Shown here: positions 6,001 to 22,371 of the stretch, piece by piece
How positions within the stretch are numbered: the first letter of the stretch is position 1
How the letters are laid out: every line of letters begins with the position of its first letter
Source of the DNA: Spirosomataceae bacterium TFI 002
GTDB lineage: Bacteria > Bacteroidota > Bacteroidia > Cytophagales > Spirosomataceae
Length of the DNA: 64,000 bases
Assembly: GCA_900230115.1 (NCBI GenBank)
Contig: LT907983.1
Span: 4,198,774 to 4,262,773, forward strand
Direction of reading: 5' to 3'
Position numbers and translations under genes: made by a program
Notes under the pieces: model-generated
What the model saw: only the letters and a program-made list of their open reading frames with translations
What the model was told of the DNA's origin: nothing
The model's database searches: none

Positions 6001-9000
6001 TGGGGTAATTAAAGCGACATCAGGGGCTGTAACAGGAAACCAATGGAAACAGGTGGGATTCTCCTTCAAGACTGGAGAAAACACTACAGAGGCTCTTTTT
6101 GCATTGAGAAACATTGCACCAGGAGGATTTGGTAATAACTGGATTCTTGATGACGTTAAAGTGAGCAAGTGCCCACTAGAAATAAATTTGAGTGGAACTA
6201 CAATCGCCTGTTTAGGCGGTAATAGTGAAGAAATAGAAGCAACTATCAACGACCCATATGAAGAATACACTTATTTCAAATGGGAAAAAAGTGATGATAA
6301 TGGAGCGACATGGCAAAATGTTACAACGGTAGCACAAGGGAGTTATGTTTCTGGGAACATGAATGTAGACCTAACGCTTCCAACTCCAATAGTTTCAGCA
6401 TTGAGTGGCAGAATTTATAGAATTAGATTGGCTACCACAGCAGCGACTATTGATGATCCACAATGTTCGGTATATAGTGCTCTTACACAAATTATTGTTC
6501 CTCCTATTGAACTGAATGTGACTCTTCCAATTGAAAAATGTATTGGTTCGGGTAGTGTTGCACTTACAGCAACTGCGAGTGGAGGTACAGCTCCTTACTC
6601 TTATTTATGGAGGAATTCAGTGGGTAATACACCAACAGTAAATGTAAATCCAAGTGCTACAACTACTTATGTTGTAGAAGCCTTTGACGCTGACAATTGT
6701 CCAGCAATTGATTCTGTTATAGTAACAGTCAAAGATCAGCCAACACTCACTGTTACTATAGAAGAAGATTCTGTTTGTTTAAACGGGACAACTCATATTA
6801 TAGCTCATGTAGAAGGCGGTTCAGGTAATTTTCAGTTTACATGGTACGAGTCTGCAGATGGTTCAACCAACTGGACTACGATAGCAGGCGTAACAGATTC
6901 GGTATATTCTCCTAATACCTCAGTAGCAGGACAAAAATACTTTAGAGTCTTTGTAGAAGATTTAACATTCGATTGTAATGATGCTACTTCAAATCCAGTA
7001 TTGTTTACGGTAGTCCCACTGCCATCGGTTAACATAAACCTAAGTGCATCTCCAGTATGTATTGGCGGAGCAGTAAACCTGACTGCTAATGTGACCTCAG
7101 GAGCAGGAGCTATTGAATACCAATGGTATAGGTCAACGAATAATACAACATTCAATGCCCTAGCTGATGATACACTTGGAACCTATTCGCCCAATACTGG
7201 AACAGCAGGAACGACTTATTATGAAGTAGAAGCAGTGGCATCCGCATCAGGATGTACAGCGGCACGCTCTTCAAGTGTAGCGGTACAAGTGCTTCCTAAT
7301 TTCGATGTAGATTTGCTAGTAAATAATGCAGTAGTGTGTATTGGAGGCTCAGCGATATTAACCGCAGATACGATAAGTGGAACAGGCAATATAACTTACC
7401 AATGGTTTAACTCTTCCGATGGTGTGAACTTCTCATCTATAACAGGAAGTACATCAACATTAACAGCCCCAACAGGCACAACGGGAATAACTTACTACCA
7501 AGTACAAGCAACTGCCTCAGGAGCAGGTTGTGGTTCTGCAACATCAACACCAACATCAGTAGAAGTATTACCAGTATTTGATGTAGATGTAACAGTAAAT
7601 AACTCACCAATTTGTATTGGAGGAAGTGTAACGTTAACCGCAGATACTTCCAATGGATTAGGCTCAGTGAGCTACCAATGGTTCGGTTCATTGGATAATG
7701 TAACGTTTAACCTTATTGGAGGCGAAACCAATTTATCCTATAATCCATCCACGACGAATTCAGGAACGACATATTACCGAGTAGAAGCAACAGCCTCAGG
7801 TTCAGGTTGCGGAACAGCAGTATCGGATGTAGTACCAGTCGTAGTATTACCAGTATTCTCAGTAGATGTAAATCCAAGTTCGAGTGTAGTGTGTGTGGGA
7901 GGAACAGTAAGCTTAGATGCAGATACAACGAATGGAACAGGAACAGTAACCTATCAGTGGCAACAGTCGACCAACAATGTAACCTTTAGCAACATAGCTG
8001 GAGCTACAGGAGAAACCTATAACCCATCAACTGCAACAGCAGGAACATTGTATTATAGAGTAAGAGCGACAGCAAGTGGCTCAGGTTGTGGCACAGTAAC
8101 CTCGGCAGGAGTATCAGTAGAAGTACTTCCAGTGTTTGAAGTATCAGTAACACCAAGCAATACTACTTTATGTTTGAATGGTTCATCAGTGATTACAGCC
8201 ACAACAGTAAGTGGAACAGGAACAATTACATACCAATGGTTTAACTCTACAGATAATACGACATTTAGCCCAATATCAGGAGCAACAGGAGCAACAACAA
8301 CAGCACCAACGACTGCGGTAGGAACGACCTATTATAGAATAGTAGCAAATGCCAGCGGAAATGGTTGTGGGAATGCAACTTCAGCAAGTGCGGTAGTGAG
8401 AGTATTACCAGTATTTGATGTAGAAGTAAGTTTAAATAATGCCGTAGTATGTATAGGAGGAAATGTAACACTTACAGCCGATACGGTAAATGGAACAGGA
8501 ACAGTTACATATCAATGGCTAGAGTCCACAGACAATGTTAGCTATACAGCGATATCAGGAGCCACTGGCGTTACTTATACAGCCAATACAGCTTCAGAAG
8601 GCCTAAAATATTATAGAGTTCAAGCAACAGCCTCAGGTTCAGGATGTGGCACAGTAGAGTCAGATGAAGTATCAGTAGAAGTATTACCTGTATTTTCGGT
8701 AGCAGTAAATCCAAGTTCAAGCACAGTATGTGTGGGAGGAGCAGTCACACTAGATGCAGATCCAACGAATGGAACAGGAACCATAACTTACCAATGGCAA
8801 GAGTCAACTAATAATTCAAGCTTTACCAATATCAGTGGAGCAACGAACGAAATATATACCCCATCAACAAGTGCAGAAGGAACAACATACTACAGGGTCA
8901 TTGCCTCAGCAACAGGAGCAGGTTGTGGAAGTGTAACATCAGGAAGTTCCATGGTACGAGTACTGCCAGTCTTTGATGTAGACATTGCGATCGATAATGC

Positions 9001-11938
9001 AGTGCTATGTTTAGGAGGAAGTGCAGTCATCACCGCCGATACAAGCAGTGGAAGTGGAACAGTAAGCTATCAGTGGTATAATTCAACAAACAATAGCACA
9101 TTTACAGCAATCTCAGGAGCAACAGGGGATTCCATCATAGTACCAACGAACGCAGAAGGAACTATTTACTACCGAGTAGTAGCAACAGCCAGCGGCGTAG
9201 GTTGCGGAAATGCTACCTCAGCAAGCGGAAGTGTAGAAGTATTACCAGTATTCGATGTAGATATTTCGGTTACTAACTCAATCGTATGTATTGGCGGGGC
9301 AGTAAACTTAGGAGCCTCACCAGTAAACGGAACAGGGACGATCACTTATCAATGGTTGGAGTCACCTGACAATAGCACATTTACAGCAATCTCAGGAGCA
9401 ACAAATGTTAACTATGTACCCAATACTGCAACAGCAGGAACAAAATATTATCAAGTACAAGCGACAGCCTCAGGATCAGGATGTGGAACAGTAGAGTCAG
9501 ACGTCGCAACGGTAAGAGTATTGCCGATTTTCTCAGTAGATGTAAACCCTAGCTCAAGTGTGGTGTGTCTAGGAGGAGCAGTAACGCTAGATGCAGATAC
9601 AACAAACGGAACCGGAACAGTAACTTATCAATGGCAAGAGTCAACTAATAATTCAAGCTTTACCAATATCAGTGGAGCAACGAACGAAACATATACCCCA
9701 TCCACAGCTACATTAGGAACAAGGTATTACAGAGTCATTGCCACAGCAACGGGAGCAGGATGTGGGAGTGTAACATCAGGAAGTGTATCAGTAGAAGTAC
9801 TACCAGTTTTCGATGTAGCTATCGTAGTTGATAATGCGATAGTTTGTTTGAATGGAGCAGTGACGCTCACCGCCGATACGATCAGTGGATCTGGTAATGT
9901 AACTTACCAATGGTACAACTCATCAGACGGAAGCACATTTGCGGCCATATCTGGAGCAACAAGCAAAACATTAACAGCACCCACATCAAGCCTAGGAGTG
10001 ATGCATTATCAAATCATGGCCAATGCCTCAGGAGCAGGTTGTGGAGATGCAACTTCAGCCTCAAGTACAGTAACGGTAGAGCCACAATTGATTGTAGAGC
10101 TAGATCAAACATCAGCAGAAATCTGTTTGAATGAATCACTGACATTGCAGAGTACAACGAGCCATGGAGTAGGAACCATTACTTACCAATGGCAAAGTTC
10201 ACCAGATGGATCAACATGGACCAATATTGTAGGTCAAACAAATGACAACCTATCAGTAAGTACCAGCACAGCAGGATTATTTTACTACCGAGTATTAGCC
10301 TTTGCAAGTGGAGTTGGTTGTAATGATGCCACAGCAGTACCTACGATAGTACGCATACATGATTATCCAACAGTAACGAGAACATTTGTATCTCCACTTT
10401 GTGAGCCCACAAACGGAACGATCACATTTACATTTAGCGATGAGCCAGCAATTGACTCCATTCAATTTAGCTTGGACAATGGCTTAACATATCCATATAC
10501 CACCAATGACGGAGCAGGAACGTATACTATTAATGGCTTAGGAGAAAATGTGTACGAACTAAGTGCCCAATACAAAGGAGGTTTATGTCCAGTGTCGATG
10601 ACGAATGTGACGATGGAAGAAAGGCCAGCACCAAGCGTGACTACCACTTATGTAGACCCCACTTGTACGACTGATAATGGTACGATCACATTTACATTCC
10701 CAGATGAGTCCACAAGAACTGATATCAAGTTCAGTAGAGATGGCGGAACGACTTATGCAAGTAATATCGCAGACAACTCAGGTTCATATACGATGAATGG
10801 AGTAGCACCAGGAATTTATAATTTATTCGCCATATGGGGGAATGATGAATGTCCAACAGACCTAGGCAGTGTAACCCTCACAGATCACCCAACACCAATA
10901 ATCACAGTATCAGCAGATACCGTATTGTGTGAAGGACAATCTTACACAATTTCAGTTTCAAGCACTGGAGGAGATAATCCAATAACCTATACTTGGGACA
11001 ATGGCCTTGGCAATGCATTGAGTCATACAGTAAGTCCATTGGTAGATACCTATTATGTGGTTTCGGTTGTGGATTCTAATAATTGTACTGTAAGCGACAC
11101 CGTTTTTGTTGAAGTCAATCCAGTACCAGTAGTAACAGCAACAGGAGGAACATTCTGTGAATTCGATACATTAGAATTAAGCTCAACAGGCGTAGGGATA
11201 TTTGAGTGGACGGGTCCAAATACATTTACAAGTTCAGATCAAAATCCACAAATAGCGAACGGACAGCTCACAGATGCAGGAATTTACACAGTAGTATTAA
11301 CCAATAATTTCTCTTGCCAAAGTACAGCCACAGCAGAGCTTATTGTAAATGATACCCCACCATCCCCATCAGTTGTGGAGGGCGAAAGATGTGGTCCTGG
11401 AGTTGTAAATCTTTCAGCAACTGGCTGTAATGGAAATATTGAATGGTACGATAGCCAATTTTCTTATTCATCGGTATCCTCTGGCACAAACTTTGCATCA
11501 TCAAATCTAGATGAAAGTAAATATTTCTTTGTGAATTGTACAACTACCTTGAATTGCGAAAGTATTGAAAGAGTGCCAGTATTGGCAAAGGTAAATGAGT
11601 TATCAGTAGCTCAGCTTTTACCAATTAACTCTACTTGTTTTGGAAATATAGCCATAAACAACGGTCAACTAATCGCAACTAGGTTTGAGGATGGCGAAAC
11701 ATTCTCATTCAGTGAAGGAAGTACCTACAATAGCAGTACGGCAACAAGTTTGGCAACCATACCAGCAAATGGCCTACTCTCACAAAGTATAAATAACCCA
11801 ACAACGCTCACGCAATCATACACAGTAAGAGTGAATAGTGTAGATGGCTGCCCAAGAGATATCGTTGTGGAATACCAAGAGTCTTGTGAAGAGTGTAAAC
11901 CTTATTGCGAACCTTCATCAATTGAACGAGTAAAATAG
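50..11938 (+). CDS. Giant secreted cell-surface adhesin-like protein (3962 aa). Architecture: signal peptide, CBM4_9/galactose-binding-like domain, CUB domain, about 14 short SprB-type repeats, a second CBM-like domain, about 13 Ig-like ~93-aa repeats, a Cys-rich C-terminal domain shared with the next gene
   Basis: Uninterrupted 11.9-kb ORF. N-terminus MCLRHLVFGIFVFLLFSISTIAQ looks like a signal peptide (GTG start at 50). There is no in-frame stop between position 2 and 50, so the true start may lie upstream of the window. Recurrent motif CxGxxLNLxSSGGxxYxWxGPNxFxSxxQNPxIxNxxxxxxGxYTVTVTxxxGCxxTA fits SprB-type repeats. A CUB-like segment (CSGTYYDTGGNNSNYSNNEDY...LRIYDG...) is present. NGDF...DDV segments look like CBM4_9. 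Confidence 0.85.
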   Translation: MCLRHLVFGIFVFLLFSISTIAQNRQIELVTNGDFSDGRNGFSSDYNWNSSSNGGYDIDNDPNDVNSNYFSFYDHTTGTSSGRLIAANGSTNANDDVWKNNINVTSGQTYTMTVWIKSIYATNPSSIGWFVGGNQVGTTVVANNNWQQLTVTYTANFTGLATFSIRATSGESSGNAFALDDVSITSEVSPTCSGTYYDTGGNNSNYSNNEDYTQTFCAGAGSNIRFSFNQFNVETNWDFLRIYDGMSTSANSLGTFTGTNSPNTVTSSTGCLTFRFTADNIYNRSGWRAAISCVPDPGCGSISSVVINDLSGGADIDITGGATVYAGQLPNNWNIEATKTVGTGSIRFEVTGDNVQSNVENAGPYRMPNDNDPLNWGPGTYNIKITHYSGNSGTGNICDVEQFTLIIDQCAINNFQVSSNSTVCTGANLNLTSSGGGTGATYNWVGPNSFTSTQQNPTLPSVGAAASGVYFATVTNSGCSATASTSVSVTNAPSVSVTSQNANCGLNNGEVTFTFPDESSRTNIEFSTNGGSSYPTYVSDGIGSTTVTNLGPGTYDLWTRWGNDECPVDLPDVTIIRATGTLTKTADPTACSGAATPLSVSLQNAVGSTTYSWSNGLGTGANKTVSPNSSITYSVTGVDSQGCVGTANITVNVNALPVATATANSPVCSGGTINLNSSGGNSYSWVGPNSFSSGFQNPNITIASNVNAGTYTVTVTDANSCSSTAAVNVLINSGLTVTASTPASNICAGTDLNLFSSGATSYSWSGPGGFSSNSQNPVITNATVSRSGTYTITGSNALGCTASATTSVAVTINSPTASNDGPKCEGSTINLSAVGGNEYVWSGPNGFTSNIANPSISNANLSHEGIYTVTVSISGACPVTATTELSMHALPNILVSNTGPVCSGGNITLNASGGTSYVWSGPNGFSSSNQNPSIFNVNNSKTGSYTVTVTNASGCTATATTVVGLSFPSLTVSSDTVLCAGGTINLHATGAVSYAWTGPNSFYAAAASVSIPSASSSENGTYTVTVSNSLGCSATASVDVSILNVATPIVSNAPVCTGDSLKMELPGWTTYSWSGPAAFSAAVEDPFIANPTTSNSGVYSVTASIAGCTTTVTANLTVRALPIPTASSNQPVCVGTTLNLTSASASSYSWKGPNGFTSSVRNPNIAVTDTLPQGTYTLVVSNSFGCLDSTTHDVDVSFVVPTVKPSGRACLSASYPLTAGGGASYYWTGPNSFSSGNQNPSISNISLAKQGVYSVTITNADGCTASVTTSLTVSIPVATASSSSPVCEDDILVLTSSGGASYDWSGPRSFASNIQNPNISIVKQNQQGVYTVTVTDSVGCVATATTDVVINKNTNGRINDNGPICEGQNLELDGRGGDVYYWSGPNGFLSSLEDPIINSASAAANGTYTLQVTDSNGCSATVTSNITVYPSPIANPTATIADICVGQTLNLLSTVNDQYSWSGPNNFNSNQQNPIRTNATTNMSGVYTLTVTDIPENCSASASVAISINTIPPPPVSPAVSRCGTGTVTLTASGCSGVYQWYDTNSSSTVLGTGSSFTTPSLSSGRSYYVNCTEFTCPSSTRRQVQITILANPTATATVTQRHCVGSTAKFTGGGNNVSSYAWSGPLSWTSNEQSPTKLINGTNNGGTYTITTTRSNGCTATATTNLQVITNCDNICGSQYVIIPTNPLSCGSTNGQVYISATNSYETSLDGVNWTRGSVTYNNLGVGNYYFYVKDYATQNICKNVSNTLVSTTSSYFTGQSVTAASDCYSANGSITLQGVQPTDDVSWLATLKAPKVPVSSLSPSNTISNLTPGKYYVKVSRANDFCYAERYVDVPNNGTSCTSNTFCDDSTVPNLFPNGDFGSGANENGPVLIETQYGYSNYTCYAPWDGFYSITNNTDCDGNGGRAFSNQAVGSWDVLTEDHTVGDVNGYMMVINAGYTPNIVVEKLIGDLCPNTQYNFTAWMRNISPASTIQPDAAFIIDGVIKATSGAVTGNQWKQVGFSFKTGENTTEALFALRNIAPGGFGNNWILDDVKVSKCPLEINLSGTTIACLGGNSEEIEATINDPYEEYTYFKWEKSDDNGATWQNVTTVAQGSYVSGNMNVDLTLPTPIVSALSGRIYRIRLATTAATIDDPQCSVYSALTQIIVPPIELNVTLPIEKCIGSGSVALTATASGGTAPYSYLWRNSVGNTPTVNVNPSATTTYVVEAFDADNCPAIDSVIVTVKDQPTLTVTIEEDSVCLNGTTHIIAHVEGGSGNFQFTWYESADGSTNWTTIAGVTDSVYSPNTSVAGQKYFRVFVEDLTFDCNDATSNPVLFTVVPLPSVNINLSASPVCIGGAVNLTANVTSGAGAIEYQWYRSTNNTTFNALADDTLGTYSPNTGTAGTTYYEVEAVASASGCTAARSSSVAVQVLPNFDVDLLVNNAVVCIGGSAILTADTISGTGNITYQWFNSSDGVNFSSITGSTSTLTAPTGTTGITYYQVQATASGAGCGSATSTPTSVEVLPVFDVDVTVNNSPICIGGSVTLTADTSNGLGSVSYQWFGSLDNVTFNLIGGETNLSYNPSTTNSGTTYYRVEATASGSGCGTAVSDVVPVVVLPVFSVDVNPSSSVVCVGGTVSLDADTTNGTGTVTYQWQQSTNNVTFSNIAGATGETYNPSTATAGTLYYRVRATASGSGCGTVTSAGVSVEVLPVFEVSVTPSNTTLCLNGSSVITATTVSGTGTITYQWFNSTDNTTFSPISGATGATTTAPTTAVGTTYYRIVANASGNGCGNATSASAVVRVLPVFDVEVSLNNAVVCIGGNVTLTADTVNGTGTVTYQWLESTDNVSYTAISGATGVTYTANTASEGLKYYRVQATASGSGCGTVESDEVSVEVLPVFSVAVNPSSSTVCVGGAVTLDADPTNGTGTITYQWQESTNNSSFTNISGATNEIYTPSTSAEGTTYYRVIASATGAGCGSVTSGSSMVRVLPVFDVDIAIDNAVLCLGGSAVITADTSSGSGTVSYQWYNSTNNSTFTAISGATGDSIIVPTNAEGTIYYRVVATASGVGCGNATSASGSVEVLPVFDVDISVTNSIVCIGGAVNLGASPVNGTGTITYQWLESPDNSTFTAISGATNVNYVPNTATAGTKYYQVQATASGSGCGTVESDVATVRVLPIFSVDVNPSSSVVCLGGAVTLDADTTNGTGTVTYQWQESTNNSSFTNISGATNETYTPSTATLGTRYYRVIATATGAGCGSVTSGSVSVEVLPVFDVAIVVDNAIVCLNGAVTLTADTISGSGNVTYQWYNSSDGSTFAAISGATSKTLTAPTSSLGVMHYQIMANASGAGCGDATSASSTVTVEPQLIVELDQTSAEICLNESLTLQSTTSHGVGTITYQWQSSPDGSTWTNIVGQTNDNLSVSTSTAGLFYYRVLAFASGVGCNDATAVPTIVRIHDYPTVTRTFVSPLCEPTNGTITFTFSDEPAIDSIQFSLDNGLTYPYTTNDGAGTYTINGLGENVYELSAQYKGGLCPVSMTNVTMEERPAPSVTTTYVDPTCTTDNGTITFTFPDESTRTDIKFSRDGGTTYASNIADNSGSYTMNGVAPGIYNLFAIWGNDECPTDLGSVTLTDHPTPIITVSADTVLCEGQSYTISVSSTGGDNPITYTWDNGLGNALSHTVSPLVDTYYVVSVVDSNNCTVSDTVFVEVNPVPVVTATGGTFCEFDTLELSSTGVGIFEWTGPNTFTSSDQNPQIANGQLTDAGIYTVVLTNNFSCQSTATAELIVNDTPPSPSVVEGERCGPGVVNLSATGCNGNIEWYDSQFSYSSVSSGTNFASSNLDESKYFFVNCTTTLNCESIERVPVLAKVNELSVAQLLPINSTCFGNIAINNGQLIATRFEDGETFSFSEGSTYNSSTATSLATIPANGLLSQSINNPTTLTQSYTVRVNSVDGCPRDIVVEYQESCEECKPYCEPSSIERVK
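620..950 (+). other. CUB-like domain within the giant protein
   Basis: CSGTYYDTGGNNSNYSNNEDYTQTFCAGAGSNIRFSFNQFNVETNWDFLRIYDGMSTSANSLGTFTG...LTFRFTADNIYNRSGWRAAISC matches the CUB consensus (C..Y......Y.n...C......i.l.F..f..E...D.l.iyDG). Confidence 0.5.
1300..4600 (+). repeat. Array of about 14 tandem short (70-75 aa) SprB-type/Ig-like coding repeats
   Basis: Repeated units such as CTGANLNLTSSGGGTGATYNWVGPNSFTSTQQNP...GVYFATVTNSGCSATAST, CSGGTINLNSSGGNSYSWVGPNSFSSGFQNPNITIASNVNAGTYTVTVTDANSCSSTAAV and others occur at 210-230 nt spacing. Confidence 0.8.
6500..10110 (+). repeat. Array of about 13 tandem Ig-like ~93-aa (~279-nt) coding repeats. A three-copy ~837-nt super-repeat spans 7567-10080
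   Basis: Units begin LPVFDVD/LPVFSVDVNP/LPVFEVSV and contain VCIGG..TLTADT.NGTGT.TYQW...YYRV.ATASGSGCG. Unit starts are at 7567, 7846, 8125, 8405, 8683, 8963, 9241, 9521, 9800 and 10080. Units 3-4-5, 6-7-8 and 9-10-11 correspond one-to-one. For example, nt 8797-8865 and 9636-9704 are near-identical (caatggcaagagtcaactaataattcaagctttaccaatatcagtggagcaacgaacgaaa.atatacccca). Confidence 0.85.
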
Positions 11939-11986: not shown

Positions 11987-14932
11987 ATGAAAAACAATTA
12001 TCTAACCAATTTACGAATGTCCTCGAGTGGGGGTATGCGATTTGGATGGTTTTTCATCGGGATTGTCACTTTTCTAATGAGCCAAACTTCCTTTGCTCAA
12101 ACTGTGTGTAGTCCTGAGTTGAAATTTACCGTTCAATCCACACTAAACACCGCAGAGGGTGTAGATGACGCAACAATGCGTATAACAGGTTTGGATCCTG
12201 CAGTAGACTACGTAGTAGCCTATGAACTGGGAACAAGCTTTACAGGTAGTATCGCTAATGGAGTTGCTTACAGCACACTTACTAATGGCGTTATTGCTAA
12301 TAATCTGGTTAATCCAACACTTGCCGCGGGTCAAGAATACGTGGTTAGAGTTTATCTACCAGATAATTCTTGTTATGCTGAAAAAGTATATGTTTTACCA
12401 AAAGCATACTTTAATGACAAACCAGATAACACTGACTTGGAAATTACAATGACCAAAAGTGCTGATGCAGCAAATCCAGGTGATATTGTAACAGTAACCG
12501 TTGTTGTAACAAACAATAATAGTGCAACTGATAATCCAGGATACAACATCATTCAAGCTGATAATGTTGAAATAACTGTTACAGCACCTGGTGGTGGAGC
12601 ACTTACATTTAACCCTACTGCAACGGCATCGCAAGGAACTTATGATGGGACCTCTGTTTGGTCTGTTGGTAGTTTGGCCCCTGGTCAAACAGAAACTCTT
12701 GTTTTGTCTTACACTATAAATGAAAGAGGTATTTATGAAATAGCTTCTGAAGTTACAGCTGCAGATGGTGATGATTTGGATTCATCTCCTTCTACAAGTA
12801 GTATCATTGAAGATGATTATACAACACAATGTTTGTCTACTCCTTTTGACTATTGCGATGATGATGAATTCGAATTTCGTTTAGCGAATCCTGCAATGTA
12901 CAGTCAAATTAGATATTTGAAAAATGGTACACCTATTACTATTACTGCCGGACAATCTGTTGCTGGTGAATATAGAATACATGCTGATGGATATTTGATT
13001 ATTGAGTCTGTAGGAACTTATAGTTACGAATCTACTGATCCTACTGCTTGCGGATTTGAATATTGTTGTCCAATAATTGTTGAAGAAGGTGAAAAGCCAG
13101 ATTTAGCACCTGTTACTCCAGTATCTATTTGCTTTGAATCTCCAATTGCTGATGTTGTAGTAATTGAGAACATGAATGCTGCAAACGATGCTGCTCCTGG
13201 TTCTGACTTTGATATTGATAGAGGAAATCTTGTATACCAATGGTTCTCTGATGGTGGTACTGGAAATCCTATTACAGGGAGTGATAGCCTTTTGGGTTAT
13301 ACTTCTTTAACATTGAATTTTGATGCTCTTCCAGCAGCTCCAGGTACTTATACTTACCGTATTGTTGGAATGGACGACTTGCACCAAACTTGTAAGGATA
13401 CAACTGAATTTGTAGTTGTAATACAAGATATTGAAAAGCCAATTGCTGCTGCAAACTCGCCAATTTGCGAAGAAGAAACACTTGAGTTGACTACAACCAA
13501 TATGGCTGATTATCAGTCAGGTGCACCATTTACTTTCACTTGGTGGAATGAAAACGCCAATGGCGGTGCTTGGACAGCGACTGGAGATAGCGTAGGTAGA
13601 ACTGATGCATTGCCAGCAATGTCTGATGAATACATCGTTGAAGTTTCTGTTGCTTACACAAACTTTACTCCAGCTCAAACCGTGACATGTAGTAAAACAG
13701 ATACTGTGACTGTACTTATTAATCCATTACCACCACTTCCAGATCCTATAGACTATGTTTATTGCCAAGGAGTTACTAATGCAGAAATGGATTCATTAAG
13801 ATTAAACAACGAAGATGTTGCATATACCATTAGATGGTATCATGAATCAGATACTTCTGTGATTGATTATTCTTACCCAAGCGTAAGACCTTTCCCATCG
13901 TCTTTAACAGCGGGATCTGATGTATGGCAAGTGTCATTCTATAATGAAGGAACAACTTGTGAATCACATAGAGCTGATCAAACCGTTACAATAGATACTA
14001 AGCCTGATATGCCAGTTGTTAATAACTTTGCCTTCTGTGAAGCAGGTTTAGCTACTGACCTTACTGCAATTGCAGAAGCGGGACATTCCTTGATATGGTA
14101 CGCAACGGATAGTGTATCTACTGTGCCAGATACGGTTGTGGCGTTTACGCCTCCACCTTCAACAGCAACAGTTGGTATTACTTCATATTTTGTGTCACAA
14201 TACAATACAACTTCAGGTTGTCAGTCATTTATCAATGAATTTGAGGTTCATATTCTTGATAGACCAGATGGCTTAGCATTTGCTGTTCCTGAATATTGTG
14301 TGGATCAAACTACAGGTATTCAGTCACTTGATAACCATTTGACAGTTTCACCTGCAAGTTCTAGTGCACCTACTCCAAGCACGTCGTATAGTTGGGATTA
14401 CCCAGGACATGGAACTCCTGCAACTCCTCCTACGCCGACAACTACAACAGTGGGAGCAACTTATGGTACTGTAACAGAAATATTTACTTATGATTATGTT
14501 CCTGCGGATAACTTCCAAGTTGTAACTATCGATTGTCCTTCAGATGTGCTTCCAGTGCATGTTGTAGTGAATCCAAAACCAGCAGCAGAAGTAATTGCAA
14601 TCAGTGCACTTTGTATTGGTGACGAAGACGTAGATAACGGAACGCTTATTCTTACAAGGTATGAGAACACAGATGTTCTTGAGTGGAATAGAGGAGCTGC
14701 TTACAGTAATTTAGCAGCAGATAATTACATAATTGAAAGCCCTGTTGCTGAAGGAACGCACGGTGGTGTATTTGCATCAACGCTTCCTAACCCTGATACA
14801 AGCCAAGATTACTTCGTAAGAATTACGAACATCCACGGTTGTCAGCAAGATATACCAGTTACCTTAGATGGTAAAGATTGTATCTGTCCTGGTGGGTATT
14901 GTGAGCCTGCATCTATCACACCTAATTTCTAA
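11987..14932 (+). CDS. Large secreted surface protein (981 aa) with a DUF11-like domain, a CCPIIVE-motif domain and a C-terminal domain homologous to the C-terminus of the giant upstream protein
   Basis: Signal-like N-terminus (alternative start at 12035, MRFGWFFIGIVTFLMSQTSFAQ). The DUF11-like segment is DLEITMTKSADAANPGDIVTVTVVVTNN...GTYDGTSVWSVGSLAPGQTETL (about 12435-12800). The C-terminus ...ALCIGDEDVDNGTLILTRYENTD...GCQQDIPVTLDGKDCICPGGYCEPASITPNF aligns with the upstream protein's ...STCFGNIAINNGQLIATRFEDGE...GCPRDIVVEYQESCEECKPYCEPSSIERVK. Confidence 0.8.
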   Translation: MKNNYLTNLRMSSSGGMRFGWFFIGIVTFLMSQTSFAQTVCSPELKFTVQSTLNTAEGVDDATMRITGLDPAVDYVVAYELGTSFTGSIANGVAYSTLTNGVIANNLVNPTLAAGQEYVVRVYLPDNSCYAEKVYVLPKAYFNDKPDNTDLEITMTKSADAANPGDIVTVTVVVTNNNSATDNPGYNIIQADNVEITVTAPGGGALTFNPTATASQGTYDGTSVWSVGSLAPGQTETLVLSYTINERGIYEIASEVTAADGDDLDSSPSTSSIIEDDYTTQCLSTPFDYCDDDEFEFRLANPAMYSQIRYLKNGTPITITAGQSVAGEYRIHADGYLIIESVGTYSYESTDPTACGFEYCCPIIVEEGEKPDLAPVTPVSICFESPIADVVVIENMNAANDAAPGSDFDIDRGNLVYQWFSDGGTGNPITGSDSLLGYTSLTLNFDALPAAPGTYTYRIVGMDDLHQTCKDTTEFVVVIQDIEKPIAAANSPICEEETLELTTTNMADYQSGAPFTFTWWNENANGGAWTATGDSVGRTDALPAMSDEYIVEVSVAYTNFTPAQTVTCSKTDTVTVLINPLPPLPDPIDYVYCQGVTNAEMDSLRLNNEDVAYTIRWYHESDTSVIDYSYPSVRPFPSSLTAGSDVWQVSFYNEGTTCESHRADQTVTIDTKPDMPVVNNFAFCEAGLATDLTAIAEAGHSLIWYATDSVSTVPDTVVAFTPPPSTATVGITSYFVSQYNTTSGCQSFINEFEVHILDRPDGLAFAVPEYCVDQTTGIQSLDNHLTVSPASSSAPTPSTSYSWDYPGHGTPATPPTPTTTTVGATYGTVTEIFTYDYVPADNFQVVTIDCPSDVLPVHVVVNPKPAAEVIAISALCIGDEDVDNGTLILTRYENTDVLEWNRGAAYSNLAADNYIIESPVAEGTHGGVFASTLPNPDTSQDYFVRITNIHGCQQDIPVTLDGKDCICPGGYCEPASITPNF

Positions 14933-15028
14933 TTCAATCCCAGAATTGATAAACTATTTTGAAGAGAAGTTGACCTCGGTTGACTTCTCTTCTTAAAAAT
15001 AGAACAATCCCCAACTTTAAAAATATAA

Positions 15029-16978
15029 ATGATTTTAAACTCTACAGCAATGCGAATTATAAGAGCATGTTTGTTTCTCTTCTTGGCTGTAGCTTCATTT
15101 TCAATCCATGCACAAGATTGTATAAAGCCAATCTATAAAATAACGTGGAATAACGTTTCTCAACCTAACCTAAGTGATGGAAGCATCACAGTCTATCAAA
15201 TCCAAAGTGCCACTCATTACGAATTACTTTTTGGTAATGAAGAAGAATTTAATTTTGCGGAAGCAGTTAAGTTCAAGCCTGGAGAAGACAAAATAGAAAT
15301 TAAAGGGCTCTCTAACCCAGCTGGTACTGACACCTACAAAATTAGAGTTTATAATGGCGAAAACTGTTACAGAACAGATGTGGTAAAACTATCACAATTA
15401 TATTTTGCCAAAGATCTTGAGAATACAGCTGTTGAACTAATACAAGGTGTGGATAATCCTTCTCCAAAAGTGGACGATGTCGTCACTTTTACTACACTTG
15501 TTCAAAGCAAAGGAACATCAAAAGTTGAAAATCTAGAAGTAAAACAGTTTTTAACCGAAAGCTTAGAAGTAATATATTTCTACGCTGACAAAGGAACATA
15601 TTCACAATATGCCAGAACTTGGAATATTGGAGATCTCAAAGGAGGGCAATCCATTAAGCTTGTTATAAGAGCTAGAGTGAAAAGTACTGGTCTTTCCTAC
15701 CTGACATCCTACATATCTGGAATTAATAAATTTAATATTATATATGGTCAATCCATTCCTACTCAAAGTTCAGAGTATTCAATAGCTGCAACAAACTGTG
15801 TTTCGGTTCCGATTCAAATTAAGCAAAATCAAATATACAGTATCCGACTGCCAACATACAAGGGAGTTACTTGGTACTACAAAGATTTAGCAGGGAACTT
15901 CTCAGAAATAGATGAGTTTACAAACCCTTCCATTGCTGAAGTAAATAAAGATAGCTCACTTAGCATTAAGCAAGGCGGAGAATACACTTTTACCAAAAAA
16001 GTAGATGAATGTACATTCAATAGTTGTTGTCCTGTCATTGTTGAAAGCTGTGCAGGGCCTCCTATTATAGTGGATTCGGTTTATTGTAACAAGAGCGTAG
16101 ATAGCTACAACATTGTTGTGCGTCTTCAAAATGACTCTTGGAGCGTAGTAGAAAAGGTCTATTATGCTATTGCAAATATTAGTTTTCCCGTTTTAACGAA
16201 CTTCCTGAGAAGAATAAATGCATTGCCTTTGACATCCAGTTCAGGTTATGTGACTTCACTGGGAAACAGTACTTATAAAATTGAAAACATACCTGCTTTT
16301 ATGCCAAATGTCACTTTGGTTTCAACCGATATGACTGGTCAGTGCCGAACAGTAAAAGTTGTAAACGCTCCCAATTGCCAACAGGCAATTATAAATGAAC
16401 CACAACTGGCAGAAGCCACCATGTATTATTTACCTGGTCAAACAATGCCAAACTTAAGAGTAACTAACCAACCAAAAGGATTTAAAACACTTTGGTTCAA
16501 AGATGAACTTGGGCAAAATGAATTAGATAAAGGGAAATCATTTGTACCGGAAGAGCCTGGTAAATATTACGTCGCATTTAAGGATAAAAAAACTGGAGCT
16601 TTAAGTCAATTGACTATTGCGACGGTAAGAGACATGACCGAAGATCAACCTGGTCAGTTTGTGGATGTGGTTGTATGTGATTGTAAAAATCCAAATATGA
16701 TTCCAACAGGAAAAATTGAGGACTATACGGTAACGAAGGCGTACCCCAACCCAGCAAATGATATTTTGAATATACAGTATAGAGTTCCAGAAGGCTCAAA
16801 AACAGTAAGTTTATTTATATTTAATATCAATGGAAGGCAAATGGCCTCCTACGAATTAGATAAAAATAAAACAGAAGTGAAGGTAAATGTCTTTGATTGG
16901 ACAGATGGCCTCTATGTTTACAATATCATAACTGATGGAGAAAAGCGAGCAACACAAAAGATCATTGTGCGGCATTAA
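15029..16978 (+). CDS. Secreted protein (649 aa) with a DUF11-like domain, a CCPVIVE-motif domain and a T9SS type-A C-terminal sorting domain
   Basis: N-terminal signal (MRIIRACLFLFLAVASFSIHAQ, alternative start 15050). A DUF11-like segment lies at about 15410-15720. The motif ...GGEYTFTKKVDECTFNSCCPVIVES is shared with the previous gene (GTYSYESTDPTACGFEYCCPIIVEE). The C-terminus KAYPNPANDILNIQYRVPEGSKTVSLFIFNINGRQMASYELDKNKTEVKVNVFDWTDGLYVYNIITDGEKRATQKIIV is a typical Por_Secre_tail CTD. Confidence 0.85.
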   Translation: MILNSTAMRIIRACLFLFLAVASFSIHAQDCIKPIYKITWNNVSQPNLSDGSITVYQIQSATHYELLFGNEEEFNFAEAVKFKPGEDKIEIKGLSNPAGTDTYKIRVYNGENCYRTDVVKLSQLYFAKDLENTAVELIQGVDNPSPKVDDVVTFTTLVQSKGTSKVENLEVKQFLTESLEVIYFYADKGTYSQYARTWNIGDLKGGQSIKLVIRARVKSTGLSYLTSYISGINKFNIIYGQSIPTQSSEYSIAATNCVSVPIQIKQNQIYSIRLPTYKGVTWYYKDLAGNFSEIDEFTNPSIAEVNKDSSLSIKQGGEYTFTKKVDECTFNSCCPVIVESCAGPPIIVDSVYCNKSVDSYNIVVRLQNDSWSVVEKVYYAIANISFPVLTNFLRRINALPLTSSSGYVTSLGNSTYKIENIPAFMPNVTLVSTDMTGQCRTVKVVNAPNCQQAIINEPQLAEATMYYLPGQTMPNLRVTNQPKGFKTLWFKDELGQNELDKGKSFVPEEPGKYYVAFKDKKTGALSQLTIATVRDMTEDQPGQFVDVVVCDCKNPNMIPTGKIEDYTVTKAYPNPANDILNIQYRVPEGSKTVSLFIFNINGRQMASYELDKNKTEVKVNVFDWTDGLYVYNIITDGEKRATQKIIVRH

Positions 16979-17035: not shown

Positions 17036-17065
17036 AGCTCCCTGAAAAGGGAGTTATTTTTTTGT
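17036..17065 (+). terminator. Rho-independent terminator after the surface-protein cluster
   Basis: ctccctgaaaagggag hairpin followed by ttattttttt. Confidence 0.6.
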
Positions 17066-18527: not shown

Positions 18528-19271
18528 TTATCGATTTAACTGCATTGCAAGCTTAACAATATCTTGACCTTTATTGAGGTCGAGATTTTGTTTAGACACA
18601 ATTGATTTTGCTTTATGTCCGTAAGGTCCCATAGACTTGAAGAAAGAATTCTTTGTTTTTACAGGTACTAGTTTATTGTTAATAACAAAGAAGTACTCTT
18701 CGGTTTTAACAAATTTCCCTTCATATTTACTTCCTGGGGTAATTCCATAAGCTATTTCAATTTTATCTTTTGTATTTGAGAAACTACCGCTGTGCTGAAT
18801 GAGCAACATTGGTTCGCCTTCTAAAGCTATATTGTAGTAATACTTTTTAGCACCAGCTACTTTGTCATCCATTCGTTGGAAAACCAAACTATCCAAAGTG
18901 AACCTTGGCGGGGTAAGCTCTATTGCTCGGGTGTTTTTATCAGGACTATAGTAAATTACTCCTTTGACTACATTGAATCCAATAAAACCTGGAGAAGGTT
19001 CAGAGCCTTTTAATGTCACAGTTCCAGCAAACAATTTGTTGCCAAAATAGGGGTTCCCTTTGTACTTTTTTACAACCTTATCGGGTGAGTTTAGGGATAG
19101 GTTGTTGGCATTGTATTCAAACTCCAGAATGGTGTCCCCATTTTCATCTATCTCCTTTATAAACCCTTCAGAGACCGTTGGGACTTCGTTTTGGAAATGT
19201 CCTTTTGTAGGGTTTTGCCCGAAAGTGTTGAAAGAAATATAGGTCAGTAAATAAAGAAATAGAGTTTTCAC
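18528..19271 (-). CDS. Secreted hypothetical protein, paralog A of a tandem pair
   Basis: Signal peptide MKTLFLYLLTYISFNTFGQ. It shares KGVIYYSPDKNT.AIEL.PP.F.LD.L.FQ.M......GAKKYYYN...EGEPML..QH.G..S.TKD with the 19447-20190 protein. Confidence 0.7.
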   Translation of the reverse strand: MKTLFLYLLTYISFNTFGQNPTKGHFQNEVPTVSEGFIKEIDENGDTILEFEYNANNLSLNSPDKVVKKYKGNPYFGNKLFAGTVTLKGSEPSPGFIGFNVVKGVIYYSPDKNTRAIELTPPRFTLDSLVFQRMDDKVAGAKKYYYNIALEGEPMLLIQHSGSFSNTKDKIEIAYGITPGSKYEGKFVKTEEYFFVINNKLVPVKTKNSFFKSMGPYGHKAKSIVSKQNLDLNKGQDIVKLAMQLNR

Positions 19272-19446: not shown

Positions 19447-20190
19447 TTATTGGTTCAATAAATGAGCAAGTTTAATAATATCATTGGGAAGACTTAAGTC
19501 TAAATTATATTTTGATACAATTTCTTTCACTTTATGGTGATATGGCCCCATAGCTTTGGCAAATGATTTCTTAGGTTTTACTAGCACAAGTGTTTTTTGA
19601 ATCACGAAGTAATAATCTTCGTATTTTTCAAACTTCCCTTCAAACTCGTTACTTGACGATGTACCATAGGCCACATCTACACCATCTTTGGTACTCGAGT
19701 ATTTGCCGGTGTGTTGCTTAATTAACATGGGTTCGCCTTCTACTAATACATTGTAATAATATTTTTTTGCCCCTTGAATTTCCTTGTTCATTTGTTGGAA
19801 AATTAACCCATCAAGGGCAAATTTAGGTGGACTAAGTTCAATCGCTTGCGTATTCTTGTCTGGACTATAATAAATGACACCTTTGACAACATTAAACCCA
19901 ACCAGTCCTGGAGATGGATCGGAGCCTTCCATGGTTACTGTTCCCAAGTACCACTTGTTGCCATAATATGGGGTTCCCATGTATTTCTTAACCAAAGTTG
20001 ACGGTGTGTTGAGAGCAAGGTTGTTTCCATTATAGTTGGAAACCAAGATGGTGTCACCATTTGCGTTCACTTCGATAGTCGAACCTTCGGCAGACATCCC
20101 AACTTCGTTGAGAAAATAGCCGGTTGTTGTATTTTGACCGAAAGAATTTAAGCCAATAAAAGAGAGCAAAAAGATAGTAATGAATTTCAT
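19447..20190 (-). CDS. Secreted hypothetical protein, paralog B
   Basis: Start taken at the internal MKFITIFLLSFIGLNSFGQ (ATG at 20190-20188), 4 nt downstream of the nspC stop. Paralogous to the 18528-19271 protein. Confidence 0.7.
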   Translation of the reverse strand: MKFITIFLLSFIGLNSFGQNTTTGYFLNEVGMSAEGSTIEVNANGDTILVSNYNGNNLALNTPSTLVKKYMGTPYYGNKWYLGTVTMEGSDPSPGLVGFNVVKGVIYYSPDKNTQAIELSPPKFALDGLIFQQMNKEIQGAKKYYYNVLVEGEPMLIKQHTGKYSSTKDGVDVAYGTSSSNEFEGKFEKYEDYYFVIQKTLVLVKPKKSFAKAMGPYHHKVKEIVSKYNLDLSLPNDIIKLAHLLNQ

Positions 20191-20194
20191 AATT

Positions 20195-21319
20195 TCATAT
20201 TCTGTCTTTAAAGCTCTCGAAACCAAAGGATTTTTGCAACTCAAAGGCGTTATTTCTCCAAACCCCAATACTCGGAAGTCCCACCCCATTGAAAGTTGTT
20301 GTCTTTACCATGGTGTAATGGATCATGTCATCAAAAACGAGCGTGTCTCCAATTTTTAAGGGTTCGTCAAAGCTGTAATCCCCCATAAAATCACCAGCCA
20401 AACATGTCATCCCGCCCATGCGATAAGTTGGTTTGCCTGCTACAGGTTCATGGTGAGACCCTAAAATGAATGGTTTGTACGGCATTTCGAGTGTATCTGG
20501 CATGTGTGCAGCAAAAGAAATGTCCAGTATTGCGACATCAATTCCCTGAGCGTCAACAATATCGAGCACAGTTGATTTTAGGTATCCAGTTTGCCATGCA
20601 ATTGCAGACCCTGGCTCCATTATTATTTCAAGCTGATATTTTGATTTCAGTTTTTTGATTAACTCCACTACATGATTTGTATCATATCCTTTTTTGGTCA
20701 TGAGGTGACCACCGCCCATATTTAACCATTTAACTTGGTGAAGTAGATCGCCAAATTTCTCTTCTACATGTTTCAGTGTTCGTTCCAATACATGAGAATC
20801 GTTTTCGCAAAGCGTATGAAAGTGTAACCCTTCTATTCCTTCAGGTAAATGGGGAAGCTGATCTCTTGTAACTCCAAGTCTTGAACCAGCAATGCAAGGA
20901 TTATACATGTCAGTTTCTACCTCAGCATATTGAGGGTTGATTCTTATTCCGTAAGATATATTTGGCTTCATTTTACCTTTAAATTGCTCATATTGAGAAA
21001 TTGAATTAAAAGTTAAATGAGAACTGTAAGATTGTATTTCGTCATACTCTTCGGGTTTATACACCGGAGAGTAAGTATGTGCTTTACATTTCATTTCTTC
21101 TACAATTAGTCTTGCTTCATGAAGTGAGCTAGCTGTAGCACCTGAGAGATACTCCTTCACAAGCGGAAACTGACTGTACATGGAGAAACCTTTCAAAGCT
21201 AAAATAATAGAAGCCCCAGACTTTTCTTGAACATCACTTATAAGTTTGAGATTACGAATAAGTAACTCTTGGTCAAGTACGTAACAAGGTGAGGGGATTT
21301 GTGTGAAATCAACGTTCAT
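20195..21319 (-). CDS. nspC: Carboxynorspermidine/carboxyspermidine decarboxylase (PLP-dependent, fold type III)
   Basis: MNVDFTQIPSPCYVLDQELLIRNL...ALKGFSMYSQFPLV...HFHTLCEN...GGGH..MEPGSAIA is characteristic of NspC. The start was chosen at the internal Met (the 375-aa version). Confidence 0.85.
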   Translation of the reverse strand: MNVDFTQIPSPCYVLDQELLIRNLKLISDVQEKSGASIILALKGFSMYSQFPLVKEYLSGATASSLHEARLIVEEMKCKAHTYSPVYKPEEYDEIQSYSSHLTFNSISQYEQFKGKMKPNISYGIRINPQYAEVETDMYNPCIAGSRLGVTRDQLPHLPEGIEGLHFHTLCENDSHVLERTLKHVEEKFGDLLHQVKWLNMGGGHLMTKKGYDTNHVVELIKKLKSKYQLEIIMEPGSAIAWQTGYLKSTVLDIVDAQGIDVAILDISFAAHMPDTLEMPYKPFILGSHHEPVAGKPTYRMGGMTCLAGDFMGDYSFDEPLKIGDTLVFDDMIHYTMVKTTTFNGVGLPSIGVWRNNAFELQKSFGFESFKDRI

Positions 21320-21389
21320 AAGTATGCTTTTTAATAACAAATGCGAACTTATGAGATAAGTTCGCATTCATCAAAAGAAACAGAAATTA

Positions 21390-22211
21390 TTAATTCAACT
21401 TAAATTTGATAGGTATCGTAAATCTTACTCGAACGGGCTTCCCATTTTGCATTCCTGGGTTCCAATTTGGCATTTTTTTGATTGTTTTAATGGCCTCTTC
21501 ATCGCATCCAAATCCGATTCCTTTTAAGATTTTAACATCTGAAATTGAACCGTTTCTTTCTACAATAAATGCAACATAAACAGTTCCTTGTGTACCGCTA
21601 GCTTGTGCTACTCTAGGATATTTTAAGTTTTTGCCAAGCCATTGGTACATTTCACTTTGTCCACTTGCAAAACTTGGTTGAGTTTCGGCAAAGTCAAATA
21701 TTTTAGGTTCTTCAGTTTGTTTCACTGGTTCTTCTGTACTTATTCCATTTCCACTTATTGGAATTACGGCTCCAAAGTGCCCTTCTGTTTCACTCAGTTT
21801 TAACCCAGGGGCGGTTATAGTTGAGATCACCACATCTTCAAGGTCTGTAAAATTAGGTATTCGCTCTTCATGGGCTTTTTCATCCTCCACAGCCACGGGA
21901 TCAACTGACCTCACTGTTTCAAGAATCGGTTGTTCTAATGGTAAATTAGGCTCTTCCTTTACTTTTTCTATTTCAATTGGTGGTTCAAATATTTTTGTAA
22001 GGTCGATTATTTGAGGTTTTGGCTTTGCTTTTTCAATGGGGTGCGATCGAAAAAAAGCAAAACTGCTTAAGACTATCAAAAGGACGAAGGAAGTGCCAAT
22101 AATAAAAGCTTTTAGGAGATGCGAACTGTACTTTGTTCTAAGATCGTATGCACCGTAAGCTTTATTTTTTTGCTCAAAAAGCATGTCGAGAATGGTCGTT
22201 TGATTTTTCAT
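21390..22211 (-). CDS. TonB family energy-transducer protein (C-terminal TonB domain)
   Basis: N-terminal TM segment, a Pro/Glu-rich linker, and C-terminus YPRVAQASGTQGTVYVAFIVERNGSISDVKILKGIGFGCDEEAIKTIKKMPNWNPGMQNGKPVRVRFTIPIKFKL. Confidence 0.7.
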   Translation of the reverse strand: MKNQTTILDMLFEQKNKAYGAYDLRTKYSSHLLKAFIIGTSFVLLIVLSSFAFFRSHPIEKAKPKPQIIDLTKIFEPPIEIEKVKEEPNLPLEQPILETVRSVDPVAVEDEKAHEERIPNFTDLEDVVISTITAPGLKLSETEGHFGAVIPISGNGISTEEPVKQTEEPKIFDFAETQPSFASGQSEMYQWLGKNLKYPRVAQASGTQGTVYVAFIVERNGSISDVKILKGIGFGCDEEAIKTIKKMPNWNPGMQNGKPVRVRFTIPIKFKLN

Positions 22212-22327
22212 TTTGTTTGATATTTAAGAGTTAAAACTAAAATATTAAATAAATAACTAAAAATATAGTTCAATTCAAAATTTCAATATCAAAAAAGAAG
22301 AGTATCGGCCAGTTAAAACAAAAAAAG

Positions 22328-22352
22328 AGACGCCGAGGCGTCTCTTAAAGTC
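22328..22352 (-). terminator. Rho-independent terminator downstream of the carboxynorspermidine synthase gene
   Basis: On the minus strand, gagacgcctcggcgtctc hairpin followed by ttttttt. Confidence 0.65.
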
Positions 22353-22371
22353 TTATTATTTTAAAATTGAA

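Follow-up and report, generated by a model that had tools for sequence, protein, structure and literature searches.

Sortase-assembled pili consist of a tip, a shaft and a base, and in cellulosomal scaffoldins the dockerin of one protein binds the cohesin of the next, with the last protein anchored to the cell wall. Other surface proteins are cargo of a type IX secretion system (T9SS). According to PMC9143113, cargo proteins with a type A C-terminal domain (CTD) use the T9SS for export and become attached to anionic lipopolysaccharide, and SprB-like giant adhesins carry a type B CTD and have a cognate PorP/SprF-like partner encoded next door. Fibrillar adhesins generally combine a signal peptide, an Ig-like stalk and a C-terminal sorting element; within the CLIPPER family of stalk domains, only some members have an intramolecular Lys-Asp-Asn isopeptide triad (PMC12617251). 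Here, we compare these systems with three adjacent genes of Spirosomataceae bacterium TFI 002, a member of the Cytophagales. The genes, g1 (tip), g2 (middle) and g3 (base), lie in a stretch of 64,000 nucleotides of contig LT907983.1 (the window), to which all coordinates refer unless another locus is named.

This work describes g1-g3 as a conserved cassette of co-operating, adhesin-type surface proteins with two kinds of C-terminal signal, an interpretation in which our confidence is about evenly balanced. We observed homologies between the protein termini, a domain map, an invariant gene grammar and a relation of two C-termini to CVP-CTERM ends. From these we infer a surface location, a sorting role of the tail and joint working of the three proteins.

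Domain architecture and comparison with known surface systems

All three genes are located on the forward strand: g1 (50-11938) is an open reading frame (ORF) of 3962 aa, g2 (11987-14932) one of 981 aa and g3 (15029-16978) one of 649 aa. They are separated by 48 bp (g1-g2) and 96 bp (g2-g3), spacings already given in a preliminary description of this DNA. The g2 product is identical to hypothetical protein SAMN06298216_3446 of the same organism, and hslU begins at 17134, downstream of g3. Each product starts with a hydrophobic signal peptide that, read from the sequence, ends with Ala-Gln (A/Q, the slash marking the predicted end).

According to Pfam and NCBIfam, g1 is composed of a signal peptide (STIA/Q), a CUB domain, an Ig_2 domain and 14 Ig_7 ('CHU_C associated') domains; an SprB repeat was detected only below threshold and no T9SS CTD was found. 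From N- to C-terminus, g2 comprises a signal peptide, an N-terminal module, a CLIPPER domain, a CCP domain, an Ig-like stalk with an Ig_7 domain at aa 673-749 (Pfam), a C-terminal module and a tail. The g3 protein comprises a signal peptide (IHA/Q, a sequence-read end that is kept in orthologues), an N-terminal module, a CLIPPER domain, a CCP domain, another two beta domains and, at the end, a T9SS type A CTD (16742-16975, forward strand, aa 572-648) that scores 51.1 bits to PF18962 (cutoff 27) and 44.7 bits to TIGR04183 (cutoff 23). This is the only T9SS sorting domain of the trio in Pfam and NCBIfam, as g1 and g2 match neither TIGR04183/PF18962 nor TIGR04131/PF13585 (CHU_C) at E ≤ 0.01. The earlier claim of a single secretion tag thus holds for recognized T9SS domains, but not insofar as g1 and g2 carry a conserved element of their own at the extreme C-terminus, which is related to CVP-CTERM.

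With T9SS type A cargo, g3 shares the signal peptide and a type A CTD above both cutoffs, whereas g1 and g2 are without such a domain. As for the SprB-like adhesins (PMC9143113), g1 is likewise a giant Ig_7-rich protein encoded beside a smaller partner gene, putatively needed for surface anchorage. However, g1 and g2 lack CHU_C/TIGR04131, and in place of a PorP-like beta-barrel, the neighbor is an Ig protein of the soluble type that carries a type A CTD. The layout of g2 and g3 resembles that of fibrillar adhesins with CLIPPER stalks (PMC12617251), each protein having one PF01345 domain above the gathering score; they differ in having one CLIPPER each instead of tandem arrays, with the isopeptide triad missing.

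Shared modules and the cysteine tail

The N-terminal halves of g2 (aa 21-371) and g3 (aa 16-344) align as one collinear block (23% identity, E 3e-15) that consists of a module of about 100 aa at the mature N-terminus, a CLIPPER domain and a CCP domain of about 100 aa, all on the forward strand. The N-terminal module spans 12101-12436 in g2, where it begins at the predicted mature N-terminus (FA/QTVC...), and 15113-15442 in g3 (local hidden Markov model (HMM), E 9e-43 and 9e-49, respectively). The CLIPPER domains (DUF11, PF01345, Pfam gathering score 24.6) follow at 12434-12799 in g2 (aa 150-271; E 2.8e-12, 47.4 bits) and at 15440-15691 in g3 (aa 138-221; E 9.9e-14, 52.1 bits). When aligned to canonical repeats, both are without the Lys-Asp-Asn triad (K/V/I in g2, Q/Q/L in g3), and sequence searches of the PDB with the two domains gave spurious matches only. 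The CCP domain, a small unannotated beta domain, is found at 12800-13102 in g2 and at 15761-16063 in g3. It ends with C-G-F-E-Y-C-C-P-I-I-V-E (motif 13046-13099) and C-T-F-N-S-C-C-P-V-I-V-E (motif 16007-16060), respectively, and the peptides ACGFEYCCPIIVEEGEKP (g2 aa 354-371) and ECTFNSCCPVIVESCAGP (g3 aa 327-344) align to each other. Across 66 orthologues and paralogues, both Cys of the CC pair are invariant and the Pro is at least 90% conserved. No homology was found between the CCP domain and the module, and the AlphaFold 2 (AF2) model of the g3 CCP domain has a low confidence (pLDDT 56), too weak for a structure search.

In g1 and g2, it is the C-termini that are shared (32% identity over 133 aa, E 4e-16). 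Both comprise a beta-sandwich module of about 95 aa and a tail with three Cys, together spanning 11591-11935 in g1 (local HMM E 2e-47) and 14585-14929 in g2 (similarity to the g1 C-terminus, local HMM), forward strand in both cases. The g1 tail, C-E-E-C-K-P-Y-C-E-P-S-S-I-E-R-V-K (11885-11935), is immediately followed by the stop codon; the g2 tail, D-C-I-C-P-G-G-Y-C-E-P-A-S-I-T-P-N-F, lies at 14879-14929. In g1 as in g2, the last Cys lies 9 aa from the end, an extreme C-terminal position that recurs in 71 tails from the loci described below, and in the loci examined the unit always stops 5-8 aa ahead of the stop codon. None of the proteins examined combines the C-terminal unit with a T9SS CTD. 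The AF2 model of the g2 unit (10 sequences) is a seven-stranded beta-sandwich (pLDDT 69.8) with a disordered tail; the alignments used for structure prediction were shallow, with only 6 and 3 fragments obtained from word-indexed protein searches.

Judged by profile comparison, the module at the C-terminus of g1 and g2 and the one at the N-terminus of g2 and g3 are homologous. The two were matched by hhalign with a probability of 95.4% (E 1.8e-8) using eight sequences on each side, and with 98.9% (E 3.7e-17, 103 columns) using 71 versus 75 sequences. Reciprocal HMM matches are in the range of 1e-7 to 1e-8 (1.4e-7 for the g2 N-terminal module with the C-terminal HMM), and the other Ig domains of g1 all match the module HMMs at E ≥ 0.01. 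Within the window, the module is confined to four termini, namely the C-terminus of g1, both ends of g2 and the N-terminus of g3. Isolated N- and C-terminal modules match no Pfam family at E ≤ 10, and the C-terminal modules of g1 and g2 have no NCBIfam match. Comparison of the latter with the T9SS CTDs of types A and B gave an hhalign probability of 0.2%, a test of low power in which type A versus type B itself gives 0.4%.

The preliminary description had limited the sharing between g2 and g3 to a DUF11-like domain and a Cys motif. The domain was located correctly to within a few bases in g2 and about 30 in g3, and the C.F..CCP[IV]IVE part of the motif is exact. The G.Y.......C spacing is off by 1-2 residues, and the similarity extends over the whole collinear block. 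Similarly, the C-terminal module that it had assigned to g1 and g2 is indeed common to both, and has a homologue at the N-terminus of g2 and g3. In pairwise as well as profile comparisons, the shared segments reach significance (E 3e-15 and 4e-16; hhalign 98.9%).

A C-D-C motif followed by K-N-P (16676-16684, forward strand) is located about 20 aa N-terminal of the g3 sorting domain, and C-x-C is present in 31 aligned base proteins. This C-x-C, often C-D-C-K/D-N-P, resembles the first two Cys of the g1 and g2 tail. To judge from these residues, the base proteins look as though a truncated tail had acquired the sorting domain behind it.

Conservation of the gene order and relation to CVP-CTERM proteins

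A scan with the C-terminal unit as query, using one genome per species, gave 33 loci. In total, 39 loci were compared, including the window and two more metagenome contigs; they represent at least 32 species-level genomes from several genera, plus metagenome contigs. The carriers are Emticicia, Lacihabitans, Arcticibacterium, Jiulongibacter, Leadbetterella and unclassified Spirosomataceae and Cytophagaceae. All 33 scan loci are from Cytophagales except for one short contig binned as Cyanobium. This contig (CALRLS020000467.1, binned as 'Cyanobium sp. NIES-981') carries the cassette on 4.5 kb and is almost certainly a mis-binned Cytophagales contig, because its sequence is Emticicia-like.

The order and orientation of the trio are unchanged in all 39 loci. 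Local HMM mapping of every ORF showed that the first gene always has the C-terminal module and tail only and never the N-terminal module (39/39), while the last gene combines the N-terminal module with a type A CTD of the T9SS (39/39). Between them are one to three middle genes per locus, which carry the N-terminal module as well as the C-terminal module and tail; two or three are present in five Emticicia-type loci (L007, L016, L023, L024 and L026). The tail subtype depends on the position too. The gene directly upstream of the base gene has the tail C-x-C-P-G-G-Y-C-E-P-A in every locus, and the tail of the first gene, C-x2-C-x3/4-C-x-P, is more variable. In Arcticibacterium luteifluviistationis and two metagenome contigs, a big Ig protein, a full-length g2 homologue, g3 and hslU occur in the arrangement of the window. 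The preliminary description had proposed comparative genomics as a check on whether the trio is a unit. It is conserved as one in all 39 loci, which argues for a functional unit.

The mature length of the base proteins is nearly constant (617-622 aa), in contrast to the lengths of tip and middle proteins, which vary widely (tip proteins have at least 1271 and up to about 3980 aa, depending on the genome). In L002, the g1 orthologue was called with 1271 aa (open frame to 1339 aa) versus 3962-3984 aa elsewhere; either the stalk length differs among genomes or the assembly is collapsed. Mean pairwise identities are 0.44 for the base N-terminal module, 0.46 and 0.53 for the middle N- and C-terminal modules, and 0.43 for the upstream C-terminal module. 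No co-variation of rates between putative partner modules was seen in this comparison, which is uninformative. Past hslU, the window has two tandem paralogous genes of 247 and 280 aa on the reverse strand (18528-19271 and 19447-20289), whose products have N-termini resembling signal peptides and match nothing in Pfam, and L001 (Arcticibacterium) and L003 have an unannotated 249-aa gene at the same position.

On the basis of sequence signals, a single 17-kb transcript is doubtful. An intrinsic-terminator-like hairpin, CTCCCT-GAAA-AGGGAG followed by TTATTTTTTT, was read from the sequence between g3 and hslU (17038-17064, forward strand; the terminator scan reported it on the reverse strand only), in agreement with the terminator that the preliminary description placed after g3. 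It is, however, not the sole strong RNA structure. The g2-g3 spacer contains a stem-loop of 21 pairs (14954-15002, forward strand; dG -25.7 kcal/mol, z -6.1, 0/200 shuffles as stable), located 22 nt past the g2 stop codon and without a subsequent T-run. The stem-loop recurs in L003 and L002, where one T-A pair has become C-G as a compensatory change, and would point to attenuated or separate transcription of g3. At the matching place after g2, Arcticibacterium carries a canonical terminator (L001 12952-12990), and Emticicia loci have 250-1100 bp in this spacer. Because of these three features, g3 may be separately or differentially transcribed. A simple sigma-70 promoter scan is uninformative for Bacteroidota.

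To find relatives beyond these loci, a profile of module plus tail was run by HMMER against 1.84 billion cluster representatives. Its matches comprise 688 clusters with E ≤ 1e-3, of which 304 reach E ≤ 1e-10, a spread that makes the module a common, unannotated Ig-like repeat. In about 100 of the 147 best proteins, the module is located at most 35 aa from the C-terminus and precedes a tail that has three Cys, contains Pro and is rich in Lys/Arg, such as CGCPADVCVPFVITQTKRAKRIGDPR, CACPPAKCVPFVIKRVK and CCPTPNCKSVTVIKKSK. Named members of these relatives are all Spirosoma and Runella. Their tails match NCBIfam NF058574, the 'CVP-CTERM putative sorting domain' (17-position HMM, cutoff 19 bits), with 21.7-33.1 bits. 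Conversely, the profile of the window-type module and tail matches CVP-type proteins with E 1e-18 to 1e-35, and the alignment runs through the last tail column. The tails align gap-free (C-e-C-P-g-g-y-C-e-P-a-t-v-t-K-t-K versus C-G-C-P-A-D-V-C-V-P-F-V-I-N-Q-T-K).

CVP-CTERM proteins resemble g1 and g2 in being Sec-exported, rich in CLIPPER and Ig_7 domains and without a T9SS CTD, with a tail at the extreme C-terminus preceded by the same module of about 95 aa. The g2 tail has the same spacing of three Cys and two Pro, with C-I-C-P-G-G-Y-C-E-P fitting the C-x-C-P-x3-C-x-P that precedes Lys/Arg in CVP-CTERM, and ends with TPNF, without a basic residue; the g1 tail (C-E-E-C-K-P-Y-C-E-P) deviates by its C-x2-C spacing and ends with ERVK. 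Unlike the CVP-CTERM tails, those of the window have Glu-Pro-Ala/Ser in place of Val-Pro-Phe-Val-Ile, and the basic extension is absent or short. A T9SS-tagged paralogue is always encoded downstream of the window-type tails, whereas the CVP-type genes are solitary or in tandem, with a g3-type gene downstream in none of six loci (S. radiotolerans and five metagenome contigs). A seventh locus (L047, Spirosoma sp. KCTC 42546, CP041360) has three CVP-type giants in tandem, with small CLIPPER proteins encoded ahead of them, and no T9SS-CTD gene listed. The module itself occurs in other settings: P0028 (5418 aa) has an internal tandem array of 24-25 copies, P0163 is a solitary T9SS type A cargo protein with the module at its N-terminus, and P0075, a GEVED-containing protein, has the module at its start and a Cys tail at its end. 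The solitary and tandem genes, together with P0163 and P0075, indicate that the module serves generally as a building block and that the CVP-type end works without a neighboring partner gene. The idea that GEVED domains lie ahead of sorting signals was dropped, as it is unsupported by the paper defining GEVED.

Two further observations were made in these relatives. Some of them (P0091, P0112, P0132, P0029 and P0034) have a CCP-[IV]-[IV]-[IV] motif about 10 residues before the Cys tail, e.g. CCPIIIESGVNCCPEDLCIPFTIKKRKK, and Spirosoma-type proteins have CCPFIVEED immediately N-terminal to the C-terminal module; CCP motif and Cys tail may be parts of one recurring structural or functional element. 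In L047, small secreted proteins of 192, 184 and 383 aa (8525-9103, 21042-21596 and 21644-22795 of that locus) are encoded directly upstream of two giant CVP-CTERM genes. They end within the CLIPPER domain, at local HMM position 81-85 of 113, so that the last strands and the position of the isopeptide Asn are missing, and could represent a naturally split CLIPPER completed in trans. A thioredoxin-like gene (7075-8502) adjoins them.

Possible export and docking roles, and alternative readings

In the interpretation that we favor, the cassette would encode Sec-exported, Ig-domain-rich surface proteins whose domains belong to a kit that is particular to this lineage of Cytophagales. As an ordinary T9SS type A cargo protein, g3 is expected to cross the outer membrane via the T9SS and to stay on the cell surface. 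The stalk-like giant g1, and g2 as well, would use the module of about 95 aa and the 17-aa three-Cys tail in place of a T9SS domain. Their C-E-P unit would be a diverged form of the 'module + CVP-CTERM' end found on hundreds of surface proteins of the Spirosoma/Runella type, and most likely serves g1 and g2 themselves for export or anchoring. The domains shared in pairs would reflect old domain shuffling, with g2 combining a g3-type N-terminal half, an Ig stalk and a g1-type C-terminal unit.

Several results weigh against this interpretation. The tails of g1, g2 and four other proteins (three of the YCEP type) do not match NF058574 at E ≤ 10, in the same run in which Spirosoma-type tails reach 29.3 and 33.1 bits. 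A custom tail-only HMM gives the two window tails 2.8 and -1.6 bits, which is what shuffled tails also score. Since they fail NF058574 on their own, the link to CVP-CTERM rests on the module-plus-tail alignment and on the Cys/Pro spacing, and the window tails are treated here as diverged relatives of CVP-CTERM, not as members. Moreover, our literature search found no experiment or paper that assigns a function to CVP-CTERM. Left unexplained are also the constant company of a g3-type gene with the diverged tail, the absence of the N-terminal module from every first gene, and the position specificity of the tail subtypes, with C-x-C-P-G-G-Y-C-E-P-A invariant just before the base gene.

These last three points would be accounted for if the proteins formed a head-to-tail chain, a possibility that we rate as rather unlikely. 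Each C-terminal module and tail would dock on the N-terminal half (module, CLIPPER and CCP domain) of the next protein, with g1 as the distal adhesin, g2 as adaptor and g3 as the sole outer-membrane anchor through its T9SS type A domain; additional middle genes would lengthen the chain. The strict grammar of the 39 loci fits such an arrangement, as do the restriction of the module to four termini in the window and the conservation of position-specific tail subtypes across genera. A base gene comes after the diverged CEP tail, the less hydrophobic one, in 39/39 loci and after the canonical CVP tail in 0/6, although this association amounts to a single evolutionary event in one clade. The near-constant length and Cys count of the base proteins, beside variable tip and middle proteins, is what an anchor piece would show. 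Pili and scaffoldin clusters offer an analogy for the chain only: there too, gene order mirrors the supposed assembly order, the last protein is anchored and the middle genes are two-ended. They differ in that the two kinds of end in g1-g3 share homology, which cohesin and dockerin do not, and no sortase, pilin, cohesin or dockerin domain was found in g1-g3 with Pfam and NCBIfam.

The cysteines can be read in both directions. The tail has three and the CCP region five, odd numbers that would allow one intermolecular disulfide per junction. The totals for g1, g2 and g3 (100, 22 and 12) are all even, as in 35 of the 37 middle proteins, and 29 of the 36 base proteins have 12 Cys. No unpaired Cys is therefore required, and one disulfide from g3 to g2 would leave an unpaired Cys elsewhere in g3. 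Among CVP-type proteins, 23 have even and 23 odd counts, which neither supports nor excludes an intermolecular disulfide. By these counts, a disulfide between tail and CCP region is possible but not required. Other findings speak against a chain: the module is a generic repeat elsewhere, its N-terminal form also occurs in solitary T9SS cargo, the near relatives of the C-terminal unit need no neighbor, and the degree of conservation does not co-vary between the putative partner modules. In addition, g1 and g2 would still need a route through the outer membrane, and our literature search found no piggyback export by the T9SS. The idea of a co-assembled complex, put forward in the preliminary description, is hence borne out in part: conservation of the trio argues for a functional unit and the grammar fits the putative co-assembly. 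Counted against co-assembly are the common occurrence of the module elsewhere, the partnerless relatives of the C-terminal unit and Cys counts without a sign of obligatory intermolecular disulfides.

The chain and the favored interpretation are compatible, as the tail could serve export and also dock on the next protein. Taken to its full extent, and put forward a shade more tentatively than the chain, this combination would describe a self-assembling polar surface fibre of a kind new for Bacteroidota. Tails would dock, possibly by disulfide, on the module-CLIPPER-CCP unit of the next protein, a T9SS-anchored g3 would carry one to three adaptors and an adhesin of about 4000 aa, and the CEP tail would be a re-used CVP-CTERM signal.

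We consider it improbable that module and Cys tail are a structural cap that merely ends the stalk, with g1 and g2 exported by another route, or periplasmic or released. A beta-sandwich that is a generic Ig-like repeat, a tail predicted to be disordered and the lack of a published CVP-CTERM function in our search would agree with a cap. Yet across several genera and hundreds of clusters, the three Cys and the Pro hold a fixed spacing at the very C-terminus. Among the proteins examined, none was found with both the unit and a T9SS CTD, and curators at NCBI had independently built a model of the tail as a putative sorting domain.

Finally, the preliminary description had raised an adhesin diversification locus, taken here as one in which recombination or gene conversion would act on the paralogous segments and yield variant adhesins. 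The mosaic architecture would suit it, as would the one to three middle genes and the range of tip lengths between genomes (at least 1271 to about 3980 aa). However, no DNA repeats common to g1, g2 and g3 and no inverted repeats of ≥ 30 nt were found, and the paralogous protein parts are just 23-32% identical, so that recombinational diversification is not supported. Repeats inside g1 are diverged, with periods of 279 nt and 234 nt. About 11 tandem Ig_7 units of 279 nt at 6900-10300 are only 60-77% identical in DNA, apart from one 64-nt stretch at 92%, and TRF reported no arrays. Because orthologues keep the same architecture across genera, the mosaic is old and fixed, and we regard such diversification as very improbable.

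Of the elements discussed, T9SS type A cargo and the CLIPPER and Ig_7 stalk domains are already known, as is the CVP-CTERM model, in name only. New are the definitions of the module of about 100 aa and of the CCP domain, the link of the window tails to CVP-CTERM, and the invariant tip/middle/base grammar in a Cytophagales clade. Bacteroidota show very large adhesins, and for many of those without a T9SS domain the route to the surface is unexplained. The locus ties together an unannotated module of about 100 aa that is plentiful in surface proteins of Cytophagales, a widespread Cys-rich tail of the CVP-CTERM type and a grammar that pairs the diverged tail with a T9SS-anchored paralogue. Even if the chain is wrong, the two new domain definitions and the conserved cassette would still serve annotation. 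Cultured Arcticibacterium and Emticicia strains carry the locus, which thereby offers a testable entry point to CVP-CTERM-type ends and to possible T9SS-anchored bases of multi-protein fibres.

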